NCBI GenBank assembly: GCA_023229765.1
Contig: JALNYO010000001.1
Span: forward strand, 66,569 to 130,568
Source: Syntrophales bacterium
GTDB lineage: Bacteria; Desulfobacterota; Syntrophia; Syntrophales; UBA5619
DNA length: 64,000 nt
Direction: 5' to 3'
In this document: positions 17,655-36,243 of the stretch, piece after piece
How the letters are laid out: each line of letters starts with the position of its first letter
How positions within the stretch are numbered: position 1 is the stretch's first letter
The notes under the pieces: generated by a model
The model's database searches: none
Told to the model about the DNA's origin: nothing
Seen by the model: only the letters and a program-made list of their open reading frames with translations
Position numbers and translations under genes: made by a program

Positions 17655-20600
17655 ATGGCGGAAATATACAAAGCAGGAATAGATGCCGGTTCTACAACGG
17701 TAAAGCTGGTCGTCTGCGCTCAAAACGGGAGCATCTTATTCTCCCGTTATCGCCGCCACCATTCGTTGACGCTGGGGACGATAGCGGAAATGCTGATTGA
17801 GGCAAGGCAGGAGCTGGGAAATATCGTCCTCGATGTTGTTCTTACCGGTTCCGCCGGGATGGGGGTTGCCGAGTCTTTTCAGCTTCCCTTTATACAGGAA
17901 GTTGTCGCCTCGACAAAAATTGTCCAGCGCCGCTGGCCGGATGTCCGAACGCTGATAGAGATAGGGGGCGAGGATTCGAAAATCGCCTTTTTTGACAATC
18001 GTTTTCAGCCGGACATCCGCATGAACGGAAACTGCGCGGGCGGAACGGGCGCCTTTATCGAGCAGATGGCTGTGCTGCTGAATGAGCCTCTGAACAAACT
18101 GGACGAACTGGCCCAAAAAAGCGGCGCACTCTATCCGATAGCTTCCCGCTGCGGGGTTTTTGCCAAGACCGATGTTCAGGCCCTCTTGAGCAATCGCGTT
18201 TCCCGGGAGGATATTGCCGCATCGGTGTTTCATGCGATGGCGATTCAGGTGATCTCCTCCCTTTCCCGGGGGCATGACATTGAAAGCAAAGTGCTTTTTG
18301 CCGGAGGACCGCTGACCTTCTTTCCTTCTCTGCGGGCGGCCTTTATCCGCCTGCTTCAGCTTGATCCCGAAAAGGATATCGCCGCGGGTGAACATCCGGA
18401 ACTGATGGCGGCAGTGGGGGCGGCTCTTTGCCATGCGGGAGAGGGTCTTGTGATCGAAATTGAAAAATGCCTTCAGCTTATCCAAAACGGGACAATGAAG
18501 GGGTGCAAGGAGGATCAGAAAAGGCTCCCGCCCCTTTTTTCCGATCAGCGGGAGGTGGAAATCTGGGAGGAGGAGCATCATCAAAAACGCGTTTGCCGGG
18601 TAGATGTTTCGGAGCTGAAAGGGGTTGCCTGTTTTCTGGGGATCGATTCCGGATCAACGACAACGAAGCTTGTCCTGATTGACGATAAAAGGCGGGTCGC
18701 CCTCACCTGGTATCAGTTGAATGGGGGCGATGCCATCGGCGCCGCCCGCCGGGGGCTCTTATTTTTCCGGGATGCCTGTCGCGAGGCGGGCGTTGCCCCT
18801 TTTGTCGCCAGGACCGCCGTTACCGGGTACGGAGAGGATTTGATCAGGGCGGCGTTTGCCATCGATGACGGCGTGGTGGAGACGGTTGCCCACTATCGCG
18901 CGGCCCGCCATTTTCTGCCCGAGGTCTCATTCATCCTTGACATCGGCGGTCAGGACATGAAGGCGATTTATGTGCGCGACGGGGGAATAGCCGATATTCA
19001 GATAAACGAGGCGTGCTCATCGGGCTGCGGTTCTTTCATAGAAACGCTCGCCAATTCCCTGAAGATCAGCGTCTCCGATTTTGCCGGAGTTGCCTGCAGG
19101 GCAGAGGCGCCCTTTGATCTGGGGACGCGCTGCACGGTTTTTATGAACTCGCGGGTAAAACAGGCCCTGCGCGAAGGAGCCACCGTTGGGGATATTTCCG
19201 CGGGACTCGCAAGTTCGGTGATCGGCAATACCCTCTACAAGGTTCTCAAGCTGCACGATCCCTCGGCGCTGGGCGATAAAATAGTCGTACAGGGAGGGAC
19301 ATTCCGCAATCCGGCGGTGCTGCGAGCGTTTGAGCTGGAGATCGGCCGGCAGGTGATCCGCCCGGATATCTCCGAGGCGATGGGGGCCTATGGCGCCGCC
19401 TTGACGGCCTTGCAGGACCGTCTTGCGGAACCGACGCGGGCTTCCACATTTCCGGGGCTGGACGCCGAGACACAGGAAAACATCATCGGGAAAAAGGAGT
19501 TACGGTGCAGCGGCTGCGAAAATAACTGCAAGGTTGCCCGGATAACTTTCAGCGGCGGGCGGAACTATTTTACCGGCAATCGCTGCGAACGCCACTTCAG
19601 CAACAAGGGCGCCGGGGGAAGGCAGGGAGAGAATCTCTTTATCGACCGCCTGAAGCTGATTTTCGACCAGCCCCTCCTGCCGGAACAGAAGCCGCTTCTG
19701 ACCTTTGGCATTCCCCGCGCCTTGAACATGTTTGAAAACTTCCCCTTCTGGGCTAATTTCCTGACCGCCTGCGGCTTTAAGGTTGTCCTTTCCGCCCCGT
19801 CCGATACGAAGCTGTTTGAACGGGGGATACGAACGGTCATGTCCGACAATATCTGTTTTCCGGGGAAGCTTGCCAATGGGCATATCCTCGATCTGATAGA
19901 AAAAAAGGTTGAGCGAATTTTCTACCCGATCGTTGTCTTCGAGGCGAAGGAGGATGCGGACACGCTGAACAGTTTTAATTGTCCCGTTGTTACCGGATAT
20001 CCGGATGTTATCCGCAGCGCGATCGACCCGGAGGGGCGATATGGACTCCCGCTCGACTGTCCTGTGGTCAGTTTCAGGTCGCGGGAGCTTCTCGAAAAGC
20101 AGCTTTACTCGTTTTTCAAGGGTTACGGGATCGCCAGAAAAACAATCTCCGCGGCGGTAACGAAGGGCAGAGAGGCGCAGCAACGGGTGCGGGAGGAAAT
20201 GTCCCGGCGGGCGGTCGCCTTGATCGAGAAGGCCCGCGCGGAAAAGCGTTTTGCCGTGGTCGTTGCCGGCCGACCCTACCATGCCGATCCGCTGGTAAAC
20301 CACGGCCTTCCCGAAATGCTCGCGGGGATGGGGGTGGATGTTATCCCCGAGAGTGCGGTTCCAGTTACTAAAGACGGTCATATACTTAAGGATATTAGCG
20401 TCTTGAGCCAGTGGGAATACACCAATCGTATCCTTGCCGTCTCCCGGTTTGTCGCCGCCAATCCCCATCTCGAACTGCTTCAGATCACCTCGTTCGGCTG
20501 CGGCCTTGATGCTATTTCCACCGACGAGGCGAGGGATATCATTACTGAAAAGGGGAAGGTTTATACGCTTATCAAAATGGACGAGATCTCTAATCTCGGG

Positions 20601-21944
20601 GCGGTAAGGATTCGTCTGCGCTCCATGCTCGATATAGCCAAAGAGAGGTCGCAAAGCTCAACGCCGCATGCATTGCCGCCCCTTTCCGCCGAGCGGGTTG
20701 AAGGAAAGGAAGCGGAAAGGACGATTATTGTCCCCTGGTTTTCTCCCTTTTATTCGCCGGCAATTCCGGCTATCTTTGCCTCGCTGGGCTATAAGGTGGA
20801 GCTTCTCGCCCCCCAGGAGCGTTCCTCGGTGGATGTAGGGCTCCGGTATGTCAACAACGACGTCTGCTACCCGGCGCTGATCGTTATCGGGGATATTGTC
20901 AAGGCCCTGCAATCAGGCAAATGGGACCCCACGAAAACTACCATATTGCTTACCCAGACCTTTGGGCAGTGCCGAGCGTCAAGCTATGTGCCGCTTGCCC
21001 GGAAGGCCCTTATCGCGGCAGGTTTTGGCGAGGTGCCGGTTATTTCCCTTTCCGAGAGCGATGCGCTTATTCATGCGGGCATCCCGATCGATCAGAAAAG
21101 ACTGGTAAAACGACTGGCGCTGGGGCTGATGTTTGCCGATCCCCTGTCGAAAATGGCCCTGGCAACAGCGCCGCGCGAGCTCCATCCCGGCTCGGCCATG
21201 GTCCTTCAAAAGAAGTATCTTGACGAGTTGGGCATCCTTGTAAGCCGGGAAGACTTCGGACTTCTCCTCGCCATGCTGAAGGCGGCCATCCGCGATTTCA
21301 ATATGATTCCGGTTCATGATGATCCGATTCCCGTAATTGGGCTGCTCGGAGAGATATTCGTCAAACACAATGAATTTTCCAATAACAACATCGTGGACTG
21401 GTTCAGAACAAAGGGGGTCGAGGTGGTCGTCCCCCCGCTGCTGAGTTTTTTCGAGCAGCGTTTCGTAAACGAGGAGTTCGATCAGCAGGCTTTTATGAAA
21501 AGCTCTCTTCGGGACCGAGTCGTTCTGGGTCTGCTGGGTAGGTATATAAGCGTTTACCTTCACCGCGTGGAGCGGGCCATGAAAGGATTCCGTTATTACC
21601 GGAGAACTTATGACCTCAAGGAACTGGCGGCTGATGCGGGCAAGGTGACAAGCCTTGCCAACCAGGCCGGCGAGGGGTGGCTGCTGCCGGCTGAGATCAT
21701 CGCGATGGTGCGGCAGGGGATTGATCATATCGTCTGCCTGCAGCCGTTCGGCTGCCTGGCCAATCACATCATCGGCAAGGGAGTGGAAAAAAGGCTGAAG
21801 AAGCTGTATCCGCAGCTCAATCTGCTGTATATCGACATGGACCCGGGGACAACCGAGGTGAATATTCTGAATCGCCTCCACCTGATGGTGATGTCCGTTC
21901 AGGCGGAAATGAAGTGGCCGCGGCTCAAGGCCGAGGGGGAATAA
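17655..21944 (+). CDS. Giant fusion protein: two BcrAD/BadFG-type (2-hydroxyacyl-CoA dehydratase activator-like) ATPase domains plus two DUF2229/dehydratase-like domains
   Basis: GIDAGSTTVKLVV (aa ~9) and GIDSGSTTTKLVLI (aa ~330) are acetate/sugar-kinase fold phosphate-1 motifs. They are followed by the Cys motif CSGCENNCKVARITFSGGRNYFTGNRCERH and about 800 aa of CoA-enzyme-activase-associated region. Confidence 0.8.
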   Translation: MAEIYKAGIDAGSTTVKLVVCAQNGSILFSRYRRHHSLTLGTIAEMLIEARQELGNIVLDVVLTGSAGMGVAESFQLPFIQEVVASTKIVQRRWPDVRTLIEIGGEDSKIAFFDNRFQPDIRMNGNCAGGTGAFIEQMAVLLNEPLNKLDELAQKSGALYPIASRCGVFAKTDVQALLSNRVSREDIAASVFHAMAIQVISSLSRGHDIESKVLFAGGPLTFFPSLRAAFIRLLQLDPEKDIAAGEHPELMAAVGAALCHAGEGLVIEIEKCLQLIQNGTMKGCKEDQKRLPPLFSDQREVEIWEEEHHQKRVCRVDVSELKGVACFLGIDSGSTTTKLVLIDDKRRVALTWYQLNGGDAIGAARRGLLFFRDACREAGVAPFVARTAVTGYGEDLIRAAFAIDDGVVETVAHYRAARHFLPEVSFILDIGGQDMKAIYVRDGGIADIQINEACSSGCGSFIETLANSLKISVSDFAGVACRAEAPFDLGTRCTVFMNSRVKQALREGATVGDISAGLASSVIGNTLYKVLKLHDPSALGDKIVVQGGTFRNPAVLRAFELEIGRQVIRPDISEAMGAYGAALTALQDRLAEPTRASTFPGLDAETQENIIGKKELRCSGCENNCKVARITFSGGRNYFTGNRCERHFSNKGAGGRQGENLFIDRLKLIFDQPLLPEQKPLLTFGIPRALNMFENFPFWANFLTACGFKVVLSAPSDTKLFERGIRTVMSDNICFPGKLANGHILDLIEKKVERIFYPIVVFEAKEDADTLNSFNCPVVTGYPDVIRSAIDPEGRYGLPLDCPVVSFRSRELLEKQLYSFFKGYGIARKTISAAVTKGREAQQRVREEMSRRAVALIEKARAEKRFAVVVAGRPYHADPLVNHGLPEMLAGMGVDVIPESAVPVTKDGHILKDISVLSQWEYTNRILAVSRFVAANPHLELLQITSFGCGLDAISTDEARDIITEKGKVYTLIKMDEISNLGAVRIRLRSMLDIAKERSQSSTPHALPPLSAERVEGKEAERTIIVPWFSPFYSPAIPAIFASLGYKVELLAPQERSSVDVGLRYVNNDVCYPALIVIGDIVKALQSGKWDPTKTTILLTQTFGQCRASSYVPLARKALIAAGFGEVPVISLSESDALIHAGIPIDQKRLVKRLALGLMFADPLSKMALATAPRELHPGSAMVLQKKYLDELGILVSREDFGLLLAMLKAAIRDFNMIPVHDDPIPVIGLLGEIFVKHNEFSNNNIVDWFRTKGVEVVVPPLLSFFEQRFVNEEFDQQAFMKSSLRDRVVLGLLGRYISVYLHRVERAMKGFRYYRRTYDLKELAADAGKVTSLANQAGEGWLLPAEIIAMVRQGIDHIVCLQPFGCLANHIIGKGVEKRLKKLYPQLNLLYIDMDPGTTEVNILNRLHLMVMSVQAEMKWPRLKAEGE

Positions 21945-29043: not shown

Positions 29044-29093
29044 GCATCCCCCTTGCCTCTCCCGCTAAGGAAAGGCAAGGGATGCGATTTTTA
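29044..29093 (+). terminator. Hairpin terminator between the convergent dehalogenase and GcvH-like genes
   Basis: GCATCCC(cc)TTGCC-16 nt-GGCAAGGGATGC (12 bp with a 2 nt bulge) followed by GATTTTTA. Confidence 0.5.
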
Positions 29094-29909
29094 TGAGGCT
29101 TTATGCCGGGAAACAACTGAATCCAGAATCTGGACAAGCTGTTTTGAATTGATCGAACGGAGCAGGTCTATCAGGTTGGTTACCCGGGCGCCTCCATCCT
29201 GCATGGTGGGGCCGACTTGGGACGAGCTCATTTTCATAAGCGAGCATACCCTGTTGGAGATATCGTTTTCCTCCCGGTGTTTCCAGAAGAGCGCTTTTCT
29301 CCCGAAAAAGAGTTTTTTAAAATCGTTTTCGAGATTGTCCGGTTTGATCGTAACGAGCCAGCCATTTCCCTGCGGATCGGAGGTGAGCAGCCCCGGGTTG
29401 TTTTTAAGACGGTAATTGGTCGCGATAATGATCCCCGAAACGGGAGAAATCACCGGCAATACGTAATCTCCCTGAATAATGTGGGCAAAACATTCTCCAG
29501 CGCCGGTGAAAGAGCCCTCCGCGGGCAGGATTACCAACTGCACGTTGGAGATAAGCATCGTGATAAGTGAATCCAAACCGATCCGCACCTTTTCCTGGGT
29601 TTCCACCTTTACCCAGCAGTGATCAGGATGAAAGAGGAAGGAGCCGTTGTCGAGCTGGTATGACGGATCGTCGAAAAACGACCCCTCCTCTTCTATTTCC
29701 GATGATTCGGAAAAATTGCTGTCCCCCCCGTTTTTCATTGCGCGGTCGAAAGGGCAGGTCTCGCAGTGGTCGTTTCTGTCGCACAGCTTGTAGGATACGA
29801 GCCCTGTTTTCATCCAGACGCATTTGTTTTCTTCTGCTGGAATTAGGGGATAACTTTTGCACTTTGAGCTCATTGAATCCATCTCTGCACCTTTTATTCC
29901 TTCAAGCAT
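29091..29909 (-). CDS. GcvH-like (lipoyl-domain fold) protein with an N-terminal Cys4 motif and no lipoyl lysine
   Basis: C-x12-C-x5-C-x2-C (CVWMKTGLVSYKLCDRNDHCETCPFD), then an H-protein-like core HCWVKVE..VRIGLDSL...LP..G...SPVSGIIIATNYRLKNNPGLLTSDPQGNGWLVTIKP. The position aligned to the GcvH lipoyl-Lys is Asp. The C-terminal region carries VGPTMQDGG. Confidence 0.7.
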   Translation of the reverse strand: MLEGIKGAEMDSMSSKCKSYPLIPAEENKCVWMKTGLVSYKLCDRNDHCETCPFDRAMKNGGDSNFSESSEIEEEGSFFDDPSYQLDNGSFLFHPDHCWVKVETQEKVRIGLDSLITMLISNVQLVILPAEGSFTGAGECFAHIIQGDYVLPVISPVSGIIIATNYRLKNNPGLLTSDPQGNGWLVTIKPDNLENDFKKLFFGRKALFWKHREENDISNRVCSLMKMSSSQVGPTMQDGGARVTNLIDLLRSINSKQLVQILDSVVSRHKAS

Positions 29910-29915
29910 CTCTAT

Positions 29916-30611
29916 TTAAGAAACCAGGAAGAAATCTTTTACCAGCTTATCCCAGTTCTCCGGATCCATGTTTCTGGCAATGCCGTCCACCGGCACACCA
30001 CCATCCTGAGAAAGTGCTCCCAGGTTGTAATTTCCCCGGGCCAGAAGGCTGTCTCTGACGCCATCCATCCATTTTATGGCCAGATCTCCGGTCAGAAGAT
30101 TTTTCAGGTTGGATGAAACCCTCGGGGATTGAACCTTGATCAGCCAGGACTGCCCATAAGGATCGCTGTTTACCCCGGCGGGAGATTTCAGCAGGGCTTC
30201 GTTTACGGCAACTATTTTACCGTCAACGGGGGAGAGCATATCAATCAGTTTTGAGCCTACCTGCACGCTCCACCCCTTTTCTCCCTGGGCGACTTCGGCG
30301 CCAACCTGCGGAAGATTGATTGAATCTATTTTGCCGAGCATTTTCTGTGCGAAGTCATCCATTCCCACCTTCATGATGTTTCCTTCCTCGGGCGTCGCCC
30401 AGCTATGCCCCTGGTGGAAAAACATCCCCTGAGCCGGCATGCTGAACCAGTTGCCGATTGCCGAAACGGCGTTGGCAACTCCTTGGTAAACCGCCTCAAC
30501 GGGTCCTTTCAAAAAATTCCAGAACACAACAAAGGTAGCCAGCACCGCGATTATCACCAGATATTCAATGCCCTTGGTGGCGAATATGTCAACGTAGGTG
30601 AACCCTTCCAT
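29916..30611 (-). CDS. Membrane-anchored GcvH-like protein
   Basis: N-terminal TM helix IEYLVIIAVLATFVVFWNFL. The core is HQGHSWATPEEGNIMKVGMDDFAQKMLGKIDSINLPQVGAEV...SPVDGKIVAVNEALLKSPAGVNSDPYGQSWLIKV. The Lys is displaced by one residue from the lipoyl position (GSKL versus SVKA). The C-terminal region carries LGALSQDGG. Confidence 0.7.
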   Translation of the reverse strand: MEGFTYVDIFATKGIEYLVIIAVLATFVVFWNFLKGPVEAVYQGVANAVSAIGNWFSMPAQGMFFHQGHSWATPEEGNIMKVGMDDFAQKMLGKIDSINLPQVGAEVAQGEKGWSVQVGSKLIDMLSPVDGKIVAVNEALLKSPAGVNSDPYGQSWLIKVQSPRVSSNLKNLLTGDLAIKWMDGVRDSLLARGNYNLGALSQDGGVPVDGIARNMDPENWDKLVKDFFLVS

Positions 30612-30632
30612 TATATAATCCCCCTTTCTTTA

Positions 30633-31976
30633 TCAGGAACGTTTAGTGTTTTTGTCTTGTTCAAGCAGCACACCGCCGTCGGCCATCGTGACACCCAGGC
30701 CCGGGGCAAGCGCGGGAGCATTGGCTTCAGCTTCCATTTCCCTATCCTGTTCCACCGCCCATTGCGGGGAGTGCTTCAATATCGGCAGCCGATTTACGAG
30801 CCATCGGAAAACCCAGACCATCAAAAGGACGATCGACGCGGTAATGGTTACCTCCATCCAGGTCGGGATATACCGTTCACTAAAAGGCAGGTACCATTTG
30901 AAGGCAAGTATCGAATAGTCGATCCGGTTGAAGATCACCCCCGCCATGGTAATGTAGGCGGCAACCCGGATAGGCGTTCGGTTGACCTTTTTTACGCCCC
31001 AGGTGAACAGGGCAATCGGGAGAAGCAGGAAGCCGAACATTTCCGTCAGATACCAGTAGCCCATTCCGGTATTCAGAAGATTCCAGTGCTGGCCGTGAAC
31101 CAGCAGAATCACCTGCAGGAAAAAGTAAACGAACATGCCGACCGCGCAGGCCTTGCCCAGGTCGATCTCGATATTTTTCCATGATTCGCGATACTCCTCG
31201 TCAACCCGATCCTTGCCGAAGACGCGGAAGCTCAAATTGCCGATGAAGATGACTACGGAAAGCCCGGCGTAAATACTCGATACAAAAAACAGCAGTGGGA
31301 TGAATTCATTGTACCACAAAGGATGGACCTTCCATTTGGCCATCAGAAACAGCGCGCCTAAGCCGGACTGATGCAGCGTGGAGAGCGTAACCCCGAAGAT
31401 GACTGCGCCGAGGCTTACCGACATGAAGAACTTGCGCATCTTTCTCAACCCCAGCCATTCAGCGAAAGCCGGAGCCAGCTCAAAGAACTGCGCGATCATG
31501 TAGAGCAGGAAATGCCAGGCGATCAGAAACAGGACGGAATTGACGCCGAACTTGTTGCCAATGATCGGATTATAGATTTGCCACCAGCGTCCGCAATCGA
31601 GCAGAATTGCCCCAGCGTAGAACATATACGCCAGAAACCCATTCAGAACAGCCAGCCTGACTATGGCGTGATACTTTTCGCCTCCCAGCACGTAAACGAC
31701 AAAGGCGCTTACATACGCCCCTCCGGCGAAGGCAACCCCGACCATCACGATGAACCCGATCCAGATTCCCCAAGGGTATTCAGGGACTTCATGCACTACC
31801 GAGCCTAGCCCCATCGCGAGCCGGTAAATAACCAAAATGATGCCGGCAAAAATTATGGCGCCGGAAATGATATTAAACGGGGTGAGAACCTTCCCTTTCG
31901 GTTTGAATTCACCCTTCAAAAAAGTCAGAAGTTCCTTGAAGCTCTTTGTTTCCCGGTTAGTCGCTAAGCTGTTCAT
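30633..31976 (-). CDS. NrfD/PsrC/HybB-family integral membrane quinone-interacting subunit with a C-terminal tail
   Basis: 447 aa with about 10 TM helices, and translationally coupled to the upstream FeS gene (ATGA overlap). The hydrophilic C-terminal tail ends ...APGLGVTMADGGVLLEQDKNTKRS. Confidence 0.75.
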   Translation of the reverse strand: MNSLATNRETKSFKELLTFLKGEFKPKGKVLTPFNIISGAIIFAGIILVIYRLAMGLGSVVHEVPEYPWGIWIGFIVMVGVAFAGGAYVSAFVVYVLGGEKYHAIVRLAVLNGFLAYMFYAGAILLDCGRWWQIYNPIIGNKFGVNSVLFLIAWHFLLYMIAQFFELAPAFAEWLGLRKMRKFFMSVSLGAVIFGVTLSTLHQSGLGALFLMAKWKVHPLWYNEFIPLLFFVSSIYAGLSVVIFIGNLSFRVFGKDRVDEEYRESWKNIEIDLGKACAVGMFVYFFLQVILLVHGQHWNLLNTGMGYWYLTEMFGFLLLPIALFTWGVKKVNRTPIRVAAYITMAGVIFNRIDYSILAFKWYLPFSERYIPTWMEVTITASIVLLMVWVFRWLVNRLPILKHSPQWAVEQDREMEAEANAPALAPGLGVTMADGGVLLEQDKNTKRS

Positions 31977-32860
31977 CTCATCCCTCCCTCTTCAACTTTT
32001 ACTTTTGCCTTGCGTTTAGTTATCGTAGCTATCGCGCTCATAAAGGCGGGCCACAAAAGAAGTATGACAGGCACACTGTACAGGAAGCCTTTTGTATATT
32101 CGGGATAAGCTGTTGTTCCAATGTCGTTTCTGAATCCGATCTGCTCGAAAGGCACCGACGAGATGTACATATAACCGGTGCCGCCGGCCTCGTTTTCGCC
32201 GTAGATGTGGTGGTAGTAATTCTTTTCGTCGCCGTAAATGCGTCGGTTGGCTTCGTCGATCATCTCTCTTCTCGTGCCGAAGGTAAGTGCGTAGGCGGGG
32301 CACGCTTCCACGCAGGCAGGCTCCAGACCTTTCTGCGTCCGGCTGTAGCACATGTCGCATTTGTGCAGTTCCGGGAAGGCCGAATGTTCAAATTTCGGAA
32401 TGTCGAAGGGGCAGGACGTCATGCAGTAACGGCAGCCGATACAGTTGTCATTCCAGGTGACGGCGCCTTCATCATGCTTTTCCATCGCCTTGACGGGACA
32501 TGCCGAAACGCAGGCGGGCTGGTTGCAGTGCATGCACTGCTTCTTGACAAAAACCTCTCCTTTATCTGTTTGAAAATGGTTTACTGCCTCAAGCTGGTGC
32601 GCATTGGTGGTCCTTCTTTTGTCGAAAACGGAAGAATCGTCGATATTGGGAACTTGCAGGCCATGCGCCTCGGCGCACGCCTTTTCACAGCTCCTGCAAC
32701 CTACGCAGCGCGTCGTATCGACGAGCACTCCTACAAATTCTTTATCCGATACCGGGGCGCTTGCCTCCGCCTTTACCGGCAACAATGTGCCGGCCGCGCT
32801 TACGCCGATGCCCGCACCCACGCCTTTTAGAAAAGTCCTCCTGTCGATTCCCATAATCAC
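31973..32860 (-). CDS. Tat-exported 4x[4Fe-4S] ferredoxin-like subunit (NrfC/HybA/DsrO type) with a C-terminal TM anchor
   Basis: Twin-arginine signal IDRRTFLKGVGAG...AEA. Four cluster motifs: CVGCRSCEKAC, CMHCNQPACVSACP, CIGCRYCMTSCP, CDMC...ACVEACP. C-terminal helix LYSVPVILLLWPAFMSAIATI. Confidence 0.85.
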   Translation of the reverse strand: MIMGIDRRTFLKGVGAGIGVSAAGTLLPVKAEASAPVSDKEFVGVLVDTTRCVGCRSCEKACAEAHGLQVPNIDDSSVFDKRRTTNAHQLEAVNHFQTDKGEVFVKKQCMHCNQPACVSACPVKAMEKHDEGAVTWNDNCIGCRYCMTSCPFDIPKFEHSAFPELHKCDMCYSRTQKGLEPACVEACPAYALTFGTRREMIDEANRRIYGDEKNYYHHIYGENEAGGTGYMYISSVPFEQIGFRNDIGTTAYPEYTKGFLYSVPVILLLWPAFMSAIATITKRKAKVKVEEGGMR

Positions 32861-32998
32861 TAGCTCCTTTTCTTCTCAATTTTTTCTGTCGCCCCGTTTA
32901 TGCCGGAACGCTTCAAGATTCTTTCCTCGCCTTTTCCGCCGTCTGCCTCTCCTTTTCTTGTCGAATCCGACAGGCGGCATCCTGTAAATGAACACATT

Positions 32999-33232
32999 TT
33001 ATTTTTTCTCTTTCTCTTTCTCAATTGCAGCGCCGCCGTCGGCCATTGTTACGCCGAGCTGCCCTTTGAAAGCCACGGCATTAACCTCGCCGTTCCTTTC
33101 CCTGGTCCTCGTTAAGATGTCCATCCCCCTGGATATCGCAACATATCCTACAGACGTCATGGCGCCTATAATCCAAAACAGGGGCATGATTAAACCTAAC
33201 GCTAAAAGAATGATGATGACTGCTGTACTCAT
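32999..33232 (-). CDS. Small (77 aa) membrane protein carrying the LGVTMADGG tail motif
   Basis: One or two N-terminal TM helices (AVIIILLALGLIMPLFWIIGAMTSVGYVAI) and a tail ...KGQLGVTMADGGAAIEKEKEKK. The 9-aa motif is identical to the NrfD-like tail but is encoded with 5 synonymous codon differences. An RBS AGGAGGA lies upstream of the ATG. Confidence 0.65.
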   Translation of the reverse strand: MSTAVIIILLALGLIMPLFWIIGAMTSVGYVAISRGMDILTRTRERNGEVNAVAFKGQLGVTMADGGAAIEKEKEKK

Positions 33233-33364: not shown

Positions 33365-33381
33365 AAACAACATTCATGCCA
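33365..33381 (-). promoter_or_regulatory. Weak sigma54-like -24/-12 candidate for the redox operon
   Basis: The minus strand reads TGGCATGAATGTTGTTT against the consensus TGGCACG-N4-TTGCW, so the -12 GC is GT. It lies about 135 nt upstream of the small-protein ATG. No EBP gene is in the window. Confidence 0.2.
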
Positions 33382-35007: not shown

Positions 35008-36243
35008 ATGGCTGCCCCTTTCATAGAATTCAGGAATATAACCAAGAGATTCGGTTCGCTGGCCGTTCTGGAAGACGTCAATTTCCAGATTTACGAAGGC
35101 GAGGTAACAACAATCATCGGACTCAGTGGCTCGGGGAAAAGCGTCTTGCTGAAACATATAATTGGGTTGCTCAAGCCCGATAGCGGCATTATCTTGTTTG
35201 AGGGCAAACCCCTCAACGAGATGAGCAAGGGTGAACTGAAGAAGACCCTTTCCCAGGTAAGCTATATGTTTCAGGGGAACGCCCTTTTTGATTCAATGAC
35301 TGTTTACGAAAACATCGCCCTTCCCCTCCGGGAAACAACGAATATGACAAAGGCCGAAATAGACAAAAAGGTCTCGGTCCGAATAGAGCAGACGGAGCTT
35401 ACGGAAGCTGCTCAACGTTATCCTTCCGAGCTTTCCGGGGGGATGCAGAAGCGCGCCGCCTTGGCGAGGGTTCTGGTGACAGATCCGAAGGTCGTTCTTT
35501 TTGATGAACCTACAACCGGCCAGGACCCGGTGCGGAAAAACGCCATTTTGAGCATGATCGCCCAGTATCAGAGAAAATTTGGCTTTACCGCGATCCTTGT
35601 CAGCCACGAGATTCCGGATGTCTATTTTATCTCCAACCGCATTCTTGCCCTTTATCAAAAGAAGATCGTCTTTCAGGGTTCCCCCGAGGAGTTTGAGGAT
35701 TTCGACCATCCCTTCCAGACGGAGGTTATTCGAAGCCTGGAGGGGCTTCAACATGAACTGACGGGCATGTATTCAAAAAGGCAGTTCAAGATGCAGAATC
35801 ATGCGCGGATGAAGCGAACCGGGGAAGGGGACATATACGCCGTTCTTGTGCATACGTTGAGGGAAGATGATTCGACTGGCGGGAAAGAATCTCATGAGGA
35901 GGTTCTGAAGGGGATCGAACACTGTGTAGCTGAATACTTCACCGCCGCGGGAGGTTTTTCCACCCGTCTTAAAACGGACGAATTTGTTACGGTTCTTCCC
36001 TATTCCAATATAGCGGAGGCGGAAGACCTTGCCCGTGATTTTGTTGACTCCCTGAAGGTAAAAACGGGCGGGCGGGGGGGTGTAAGCGGCGCCGGACATG
36101 AACATGACGGCAAGGGCGGGAATTTTGCGCTGCTTACAGGCATAGCGGAGGGATTCCCTGCTGATGAGATAGAAACCGTTATAGCGTCTGCCCGGTCTCA
36201 ACAAAAAGAAACAACGCGTCTTCACTGTGATGCGAGGAGGTAG
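35008..36243 (+). CDS. mlaF: MlaF-type ABC ATPase fused to a C-terminal degenerate GGDEF-like domain
   Basis: The N-terminal ~250 aa carry Walker A GLSGSGKSVLLK, LSGGMQKRAALAR and LFDEPTTGQDP. The C-terminal ~150 aa read HELTGMYSKRQF...AVLVHTLRED...HEEVLKGIEHCVAEYF...STRLKTDEFVTVLPYSNIAEAEDLA...LLTGIAE. That follows the GGDEF-domain layout, with KTDEF in place of GGDEF. Confidence 0.8.
   Translation: MAAPFIEFRNITKRFGSLAVLEDVNFQIYEGEVTTIIGLSGSGKSVLLKHIIGLLKPDSGIILFEGKPLNEMSKGELKKTLSQVSYMFQGNALFDSMTVYENIALPLRETTNMTKAEIDKKVSVRIEQTELTEAAQRYPSELSGGMQKRAALARVLVTDPKVVLFDEPTTGQDPVRKNAILSMIAQYQRKFGFTAILVSHEIPDVYFISNRILALYQKKIVFQGSPEEFEDFDHPFQTEVIRSLEGLQHELTGMYSKRQFKMQNHARMKRTGEGDIYAVLVHTLREDDSTGGKESHEEVLKGIEHCVAEYFTAAGGFSTRLKTDEFVTVLPYSNIAEAEDLARDFVDSLKVKTGGRGGVSGAGHEHDGKGGNFALLTGIAEGFPADEIETVIASARSQQKETTRLHCDARR

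Follow-up and report, generated by a model that had tools for sequence, protein, structure and literature searches.

In a 64-kb stretch of genomic DNA from a Syntrophales bacterium (64,000 nucleotides of contig JALNYO010000001.1; "the window" below), we analysed five co-directional genes on the minus strand, p1 to p5 (29091-33232), which encode a small membrane protein, an iron-sulphur (FeS) protein with a Tat signal and a membrane anchor, an NrfD-type protein with about 10 transmembrane (TM) helices and two proteins of the GcvH fold. All five genes were present with the spacing claimed in an earlier reading of this DNA (the original prediction), and domain searches confirmed the protein types that it had named. 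We suggest, with a probability of roughly 0.4, that the operon is under sigma-54 control and encodes a quinone module facing the periplasm; on the cytoplasmic side, its tails would serve as docking sites for metal-binding sensor or adaptor proteins of the GcvH fold. Central to this proposal is a motif of the type G-x-T-M-[AQ]-D-G-G, common to four of the five operon proteins (p1, p3, p4 and p5); this shared motif, the sigma-54-type promoter and the archaemetzincin and two-component-system genes of relatives were all absent from the original prediction. The genes and elements concerned are:

32999..33232, minus strand: p1, an open reading frame (ORF) for 77 amino acids (aa) with a good AGGAGG ribosome-binding site
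31973..32860, minus strand: p2, a four-cluster FeS protein, from its ORF and domain matches
30633..31976, minus strand: p3, an NrfD-family protein of 447 aa
29916..30611, minus strand: p4, 231 aa, with a TM helix, a GcvH-fold domain and a C-terminal extension
29091..29909, minus strand: p5, with a Cys4 module, a GcvH-fold domain and a helical C-terminal extension
33032..33058, minus strand: tail motif LGVTMADGG of p1, 10 residues from the C-terminus
30672..30698, minus strand: C-terminal motif LGVTMADGG of p3, in an appendix past the HmcC homology region
29997..30023, minus strand: internal motif LGALSQDGG of p4, 26 residues from the C-terminus
29190..29216, minus strand: internal motif VGPTMQDGG of p5, 32 residues from the C-terminus
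29754..29822, minus strand: Cys4 module of p5, C-x12-C-x5-C-x2-C (KCVWMKTGLVSYKLCDRNDHCETC), with invariant cysteines and a predicted metal site
33366..33381, minus strand: putative promoter, a sigma-54-type -24/-12 element TGGCATGAATGTTGTT read from the sequence about 130 nt upstream of p1

The five genes form a real, conserved operon. Genes p2 and p3 overlap by ATGA, and gaps of 21 and 6 nt follow p3 and p4. The start of p2 is likely the ATG at 32854, which gives 293 aa and matches the gene call in relative L028; that of p5 is more likely a second ATG at 29882 (263 aa): its ribosome-binding site is better, public gene calls agree with it, and the p4-p5 gap would widen to 33 nt. Searching genomes with the p5 family gave 24 loci, most of them from Syntrophales; BLAST mapping recovered the order p1-p2-p3-p4-p5 in about 15 of them (Syntrophales/Thermodesulfobacteriota), with 52-95% protein identity. 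The same order recurs in further metagenome contigs, and in most related loci a p1 homologue precedes the HmcB-like gene.

The original prediction had held that no catalytic partner is encoded here or in the flanks, and this was borne out: no catalytic subunit or redox enzyme was found in the flanks or in the rest of the window, which hold mla genes, hydrolases, a TetR regulator and housekeeping genes. It had allowed, too, that the cluster might elsewhere always stand beside a known catalytic subunit. None of the approximately 15 syntenic Syntrophales-type loci, however, contains an added cytochrome, molybdopterin or hydrogenase gene. Since these loci keep the five-gene unit intact and add no catalytic gene, we rejected the idea that the operon is a rearranged remnant of a larger catalytic operon. 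Co-occurrence of GcvH-like and NrfCD genes in other genomes is real, spans phyla and includes neighbours of complete QrcABCD. Accessory genes also occur without NrfCD, as a p1-p4 pair (L013:9227-10349, minus strand) and as a p1-p4-p5 set (L020:6503-8343).

To judge from homology, p2, p3 and an HmcD-like helix at the N-terminus of p4 would constitute a minimal quinone-interacting module of the Hmc/Nhc/HybAB type. p2 is a four-cluster protein (Fer4_11, E = 3e-22; 16 Cys) with a twin-arginine Tat motif, DRRTFLK, and a C-terminal TM helix (residues 263-281) followed by 6 Lys/Arg in 14 residues, and p3 matches NrfD (PF03916) above threshold (E = 6e-11). The best family matches of p2 were HmcB (NF045715; 316 bits against a cut-off of 420) and HybA (226 against 263), and those of p3 were HmcC (NF045714; 359 against 550) and HybB (212 against 450). 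The p4 helix weakly resembles HmcD/DVU_0533: residues 10-36 scored 25 bits with HmcD (NF045712; cut-off 34), together with a weak match to PF28260. p2 scored 74 bits with QrcC and p3 37 bits with QrcD. Because all family scores fall under the equivalog cut-offs, p2 and p3 are, as far as sequence can tell, relatives of Hmc and Hyb and not members.

The likeness to Hmc/Nhc extends to gene order, p2-p3-p4 corresponding to B-C-D, and to the pairing of a periplasmic FeS subunit with an NrfD subunit. However, the multihaem cytochrome HmcA/NhcA, the cytochrome b HmcE and the CCG protein HmcF are absent from the operon and from the approximately 15 syntenic loci, and, unlike in Hmc, the D subunit (p4) is fused to a GcvH-fold domain and the C subunit (p3) bears a TMADGG tail. 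HybA-HybB of Escherichia coli hydrogenase 2 likewise pair a Tat-dependent, C-terminally anchored four-cluster FeS protein with a haem-less NrfD-type subunit. In contrast to that system, hydrogenase structural genes are absent from the window and related loci, the scores are under the cut-offs, and the cytoplasmic accessory proteins of the p4/p5 kind have no counterpart in HybAB. QrcABCD shares the periplasm-facing FeS/NrfD architecture, and distant relatives of the operon pair tail and GcvH-fold proteins with complete Qrc, although QrcA and QrcB are missing from the window. The core module would link the menaquinone pool, by electron transfer in either direction, with a redox protein of the periplasm whose gene lies elsewhere, for example a hydrogenase, a formate dehydrogenase or a c-type cytochrome.

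The two proteins that distinguish this operon, p4 and p5, both match GCV_H (PF01597; E = 8e-26 and 6e-18, respectively). We found more than 1,100 word-filtered homologues of p4 and 168 close homologues of p5, and an exhaustive profile search put the wider p5 family at no fewer than 690 clusters (50% identity, E<=1e-30). Although they share the GcvH fold with H-protein, LbpA and GcvH-L, p4 and p5 differ from these in having a TM helix, Cys4 modules and a C-terminal xDGG extension, and the lysine of the E-[ST]-x-K hairpin signature is missing or shifted. At the lipoyl-lysine position p5 has a near-invariant Asp and p4 a Ser with Lys one residue on, and no Lys is conserved there across the wider GcvH-fold family. 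TIGR00527 and NF002270 both remained under their cut-offs, and no gcvT, gcvP, lpd, sHdr or lipoate ligase genes were found in the window or related loci. On the lysine test, a lipoyl carrier role for p4 and p5 appears untenable and was rejected. The current annotation of these proteins, "glycine cleavage system H protein", misleads metabolic reconstruction in Syntrophales, soil and peat bacteria, Aminicenantes and Marinimicrobia.

All four cysteines of the p5 Cys4 module were invariant in alignments of 72 and of 41 homologues, and relatives of p5 contain the module 2-4 times; one of them, P0371, has four modules and then GcvH, and another protein, P0389, is a tandem duplication of p4. In P0361 (505 aa), an intact p5-kinase fusion, the order is Cys4-GcvH-xDGG-HisKA-HATPase_c, with HisKA placed after the motif region. 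Two further p5-kinase fusions (L013:3698-5320 and L027:885-2420) are frameshifted, at different positions, and could reflect assembly errors or decay.

In the AlphaFold2 (AF2) model of p4, the GcvH core had predicted local distance difference test (pLDDT) values of 75-92, and Foldseek matched it to the solved H-proteins 1onl and 3ab9 with a target-normalised TM-score of about 0.9 at 28-37% identity, whereas the C-terminal motif region was below 50. The p5 model was unusable (mean pLDDT 47); the input alignments for both proteins were shallow in diversity. Motif regions that are invariant yet poorly modelled are compatible with segments that become ordered only on a partner.

The motif itself is strongly conserved and, within the window, confined to the operon: a search of all six frames for its core pattern gave three matches, every one of them in the operon. 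D203, G204 and G205 of the p4 motif were invariant in 56 homologues, as were G, Q, D, G and G of the p5 motif in 72. The p3 tail is present on NrfD proteins of approximately 442-450 aa in many related loci and missing from versions of approximately 411-418 aa. p1 had no Pfam or NCBIfam match, and we scanned metagenome contigs by exact DNA pattern for LGxTMADGG, which matched at least 80 loci; the tail statistics that follow are for the matches listed. The motif was in frame at 75 of 80 loci and lay no more than 50 residues from the C-terminus in 71 of these 75. Its bearers were mostly proteins of 60-150 aa with a single N-terminal TM helix, like p1. From 70 unique tail sequences we derived the consensus D-x-H-[AST]-[FL]-x-[VLI]-P-x-LG-[LVI]-TMADGG-[ED], in which conservation extends to positions that the search pattern did not impose (His at -7, 74%; Pro at -2, 86%; Glu/Asp at +9, 90%).

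A GcvH-fold gene lay immediately 3' of 33 of the 46 tails with at least 700 nt downstream, typically after a gap of 6-8 nt; tails lacking an adjacent GcvH gene came mostly from Syntrophales-type loci, where HmcBC intervene, or from merged ORF calls. Tails carry the motif 5-20 aa from the C-terminus; for GcvH-fold proteins the distance is 24-37 aa. The window has the features of this tail/GcvH module: tails on p1 and p3, and an internal motif in p4 and p5 accompanied by a TM helix or Cys4. We infer that the LGxTMADGG tails of p1 and of the p3 C-terminus are docking peptides for p4 and p5, whose own internal look-alike motif could compete for the same docking site. In 28 of 69 tail proteins (L035-L112; strict pattern) the sequence DPxxFWLN[IV]TN stands just before the TM helix; Syntrophales p1 does not have it.

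Predicted topology places the motifs and the GcvH-fold proteins on one side of the membrane. p1 has one TM helix (residues 4-22), with the N-terminus out and a Lys/Arg-rich tail predicted to be cytoplasmic, and for the approximately 10 helices of p3, hydropathy and the positive-inside rule predict that both termini are cytoplasmic. The soluble part of p4, p5 (which has no signal peptide) and all tail motifs are likewise predicted to be cytoplasmic. A periplasmic location of the GcvH domains was considered and rejected, given the positive-inside pattern, the missing signal peptide of p5 and the kinase fusion. Topology prediction for the GcvH-like pair, called for by the original prediction, therefore puts both proteins on the side opposite to Tat-exported p2. 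On the cytoplasmic face, membrane-tethered p4 and soluble p5 with its Cys4 metal site would form an accessory system to the quinone module.

The partners of the tail/GcvH pair vary. In many peat and soil contigs, the gene for a tail protein is followed by one for a soluble GcvH-fold protein that has two "CPxL...C" modules, then by QrcA-D and lastly by the gene for a GcvH-fold protein with a TM helix and Cys4; here QrcA scored above its cut-off (209 bits), QrcD just below (564 against 570), and QrcB and QrcC under theirs. In another group of Thermodesulfobacteriota, p5 follows an SfMCT-type L-lactate transporter of the major facilitator superfamily (MFS; 417 bits, above cut-off), whose own C-terminus ends LG[AV]TMADGGEK; the C-termini of MFS proteins are cytoplasmic. 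The SfMCT structure 6g9x was uninformative on this tail, because the deposited chain stops shortly past the last helix. The p5-type genes of Marinimicrobia and Aminicenantes, some of which have two Cys4 modules, stand beside a two-component system with no obvious tail bearer. Judged by these neighbourhoods, the tail/GcvH pair is modular, accompanying HmcBC-like modules, QrcABCD and SfMCT-type lactate MFS transporters.

Three kinds of neighbour were seen besides. At L018:7323-8078, and again in L019 and L021, a Sir2-family deacylase is encoded directly ahead of the tail-bearing MFS gene and p5. This may be coincidence, although it recalls the pairing of sirtuin with GcvH-L known in Firmicutes. 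Genes for RseC/MucC-family membrane proteins, in which no tail motif was found, are convergent with p5-type genes at L022:11026-11469 and L032:8955-9392 (both Aminicenantes) and at L155:9983-10405. Directly upstream of the kinase, regulator, protease and p5 genes of the Marinimicrobia-type loci L033 (1-4154) and L155 (1-4761) is a cluster of NuoG/FdhA-like, NuoE-like and NuoF-GltD-like genes, and this soluble oxidoreductase cluster may be a soluble "cargo".

The variety of partners bears on an explanation in which the GcvH-fold proteins, tethered by the tails, are local post-translational regulators or caps, gating, for example, the cytoplasmic proton pathway of NrfD or the cycle of the MFS transporter, with the two-component system acting only in transcription. 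Tight adjacency of tail and GcvH genes suggests translational coupling and a stoichiometric complex, a membrane-anchored paralogue is available (p4; the G2 proteins of Qrc-type loci), and the cargo, though varied, is always a membrane energy-converting or transport protein; sigma-54-type promoters upstream of the cargo operons would fit as well. On the other hand, the p5-kinase fusions weigh against gating of this kind, as do the co-directional p5 clusters of Marinimicrobia and Aminicenantes, in which kinase, regulator and protease genes accompany p5 but a tail-bearing membrane protein is missing from the vicinity. We consider it rather unlikely and prefer a sensor or adaptor function linked to transcription.

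Such a link is suggested by promoter elements and by neighbouring genes. An element TTGGCAY-N5-TTG[GT] was found in 12 of the 14 Syntrophales-type loci examined, the window among them, at matching positions approximately 450-620 nt ahead of the HmcB-like gene. Of 61 metagenome loci, most have a GG-N10-GC element at a constant spacing of approximately 250 nt from the tail motif; at an element score >=13, 23 forward regions of these loci were positive against 1 reverse-complement control. A sigma-54-type element also lies 67-70 nt upstream of the MFS genes. Scans for sigma-70 promoters and terminators gave counts no better than those of shuffled sequence. [quoted passage not shown]

Genes for a histidine kinase, a sigma-54 response regulator and an archaemetzincin flank the p5-type genes in approximately 16 of the 20 genome loci with enough flanking sequence, and the same trio occurs in many metagenome loci. 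The kinase is of the HAMP type with Hmc or Qrc cargo and of the Cache type with MFS cargo, and the regulator consists of a receiver, a sigma-54-activator and a helix-turn-helix domain. The archaemetzincin (NF033823, 163 bits against a cut-off of 145) retains an intact HExxHxxGxxxC...CxM...CxxC signature. In Marinimicrobia and Aminicenantes, kinase, regulator, protease and p5 form one co-directional cluster. From this synteny and the kinase fusion we infer that p5 would serve as a sensor or adaptor: it would report whether the membrane machine is present or what state it is in, or else the redox or metal state of the cytoplasm. Its signal would pass through the histidine kinase and the sigma-54 response regulator to the sigma-54-type promoter of the operon, and the archaemetzincin would act on the TMADGG motif or on the proteins that bear it.

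Two known systems offer analogies only. NreB-type Fe-S kinases, which are cytoplasmic and sense a cofactor, resemble P0361 in the fusion of a Cys4 input domain to HisKA-HATPase, and the PspA/PspBC/PspF system, a membrane-tethered partner switch, resembles the present one in its sigma-54 activator and in small single-pass proteins that could recruit a soluble regulator. However, there is no kinship of sequence or fold with either: the input here is a GcvH fold and not PAS, and the activator has a receiver domain.

The archaemetzincin also allows the tail motif to be viewed as a processing or degradation tag, the protease cleaving at or near TMADGG to control maturation, stoichiometry or turnover, with the GcvH-fold proteins as substrates or adaptors. 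Consistent with this view, an intact archaemetzincin is co-conserved with p5-type genes in three phyla, inside the two-component-system operon; the distance of the motif from the C-terminus is stereotyped in both protein classes; and Gly-Gly followed by a short charged peptide is like sites known to be trimmed elsewhere. Yet the residues past the motif in p4 and p5 are strongly conserved, which would not be expected of a discarded peptide, and the window and its closest relatives have tails with no protease gene nearby. To our knowledge, neither an activity nor a substrate has been described for bacterial archaemetzincins. We regard a tag of this kind as an unlikely explanation of the motif, and docking of GcvH-fold sensors remains the reading that we favour.

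Several points weigh against that reading. The -12 part of the promoter element is non-canonical, with TTGT or TTGG instead of TTGC. tblastn found no kinase, regulator or protease gene in the 64-kb window, and none lies nearby in L001, L002 or L030, its closest relatives; because these loci are without such genes, the regulatory link rests on other relatives and on the promoter match. The convergent synteny could arise simply because a two-component system controls the operon, with p5 sending it no signal. The structure models of p4 and p5 are of low quality beyond the GcvH core. Two fusions, moreover, hint at a redox role: in P0505, three Cys4 modules surround a NuoG-like 2Fe-2S/4Fe-4S domain ahead of GcvH, and P0426 joins three GcvH domains to FAD-oxidase, Fer4 and CCG parts.

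These fusions bring forward a different function, in which the GcvH-fold proteins are redox subunits or carriers and a Cys4 Fe-S centre provides cytoplasmic electron entry or exit, in place of HmcEF or DsrMK. It would agree with their conserved association with Hmc-like and Qrc-like NrfCD modules, with the position of p4 in the place of HmcD in the operon, and with the four invariant cysteines, whose spacing is reminiscent of Fe-S sensor motifs. NrfD subunits, however, are established to carry no cofactor. Because of this, and because the operon has no cytochrome b or other TM cofactor carrier and p2 is exported by Tat to the periplasm, there is no evident route for electrons from p2 to p4 or p5. 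In addition, a Cys module is missing from p4, neither p4 nor p5 has the lipoyl lysine in its usual place, p5 is the input domain of a kinase in the fusion, and GcvH-fold proteins also stand beside lactate MFS transporters or a two-component system alone, where electron transfer is not needed. We regard a redox function as improbable.

The original prediction had made the two H-protein-like proteins the electron- or substrate-carrying partner of the NrfCD pair. That claim was not supported, in view of the absent or shifted lipoyl lysine, the predicted cytoplasmic location, the occurrence of p5 without NrfCD elsewhere and the kinase fusion. Its broader suggestion, an uncharacterised quinone-linked carrier-protein redox system, stands as regards a conserved and apparently undescribed link between NrfCD and GcvH-fold proteins, but the carrier role is poorly supported.

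The full-text literature that we searched, with subscription journals lying outside it, contained no description of the TMADGG motif, of the pairing of GcvH-like with NrfD-type proteins or of the archaemetzincin/sigma-54 module. The core of the operon appears to be a variant of a known complex type; the accessory system may be new in kind. Tentatively, and with odds short of even, the tails, the Cys4/GcvH proteins, the archaemetzincin and the sigma-54 two-component system could together make up a cross-phylum signalling or adaptor system in which an H-protein fold reads TMADGG and the output is coupled to transcription; motif mimicry and proteolysis are possibly part of it. We know of no role for archaemetzincins in bacteria, and such a system, if real, would give them a first functional context. 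Anaerobic respiration and the reverse electron transport of syntrophs both rely centrally on NrfD-type modules, about whose regulation and cytoplasmic face little has been described. A conserved, easily recognized signature, the nine-residue tail with its GcvH-fold reader, ties Hmc-like modules, Qrc and lactate transporters to a sigma-54 two-component system and archaemetzincin.

Two genes elsewhere in the window have unusual features. The MlaF-like ABC ATPase at 35008-36243 (plus strand; 411 aa) is approximately 160 aa longer than usual, and the extension has a weak GGDEF match in the L030 orthologue; the protein may be a regulated Mla ATPase. At 17655-21944 (plus strand), an ORF of 1429 aa, whose orthologue in L030 is annotated BcrAD_BadFG + DUF2229, would encode a giant activase-like protein of the 2-hydroxyacyl-CoA dehydratase/benzoyl-CoA reductase type.

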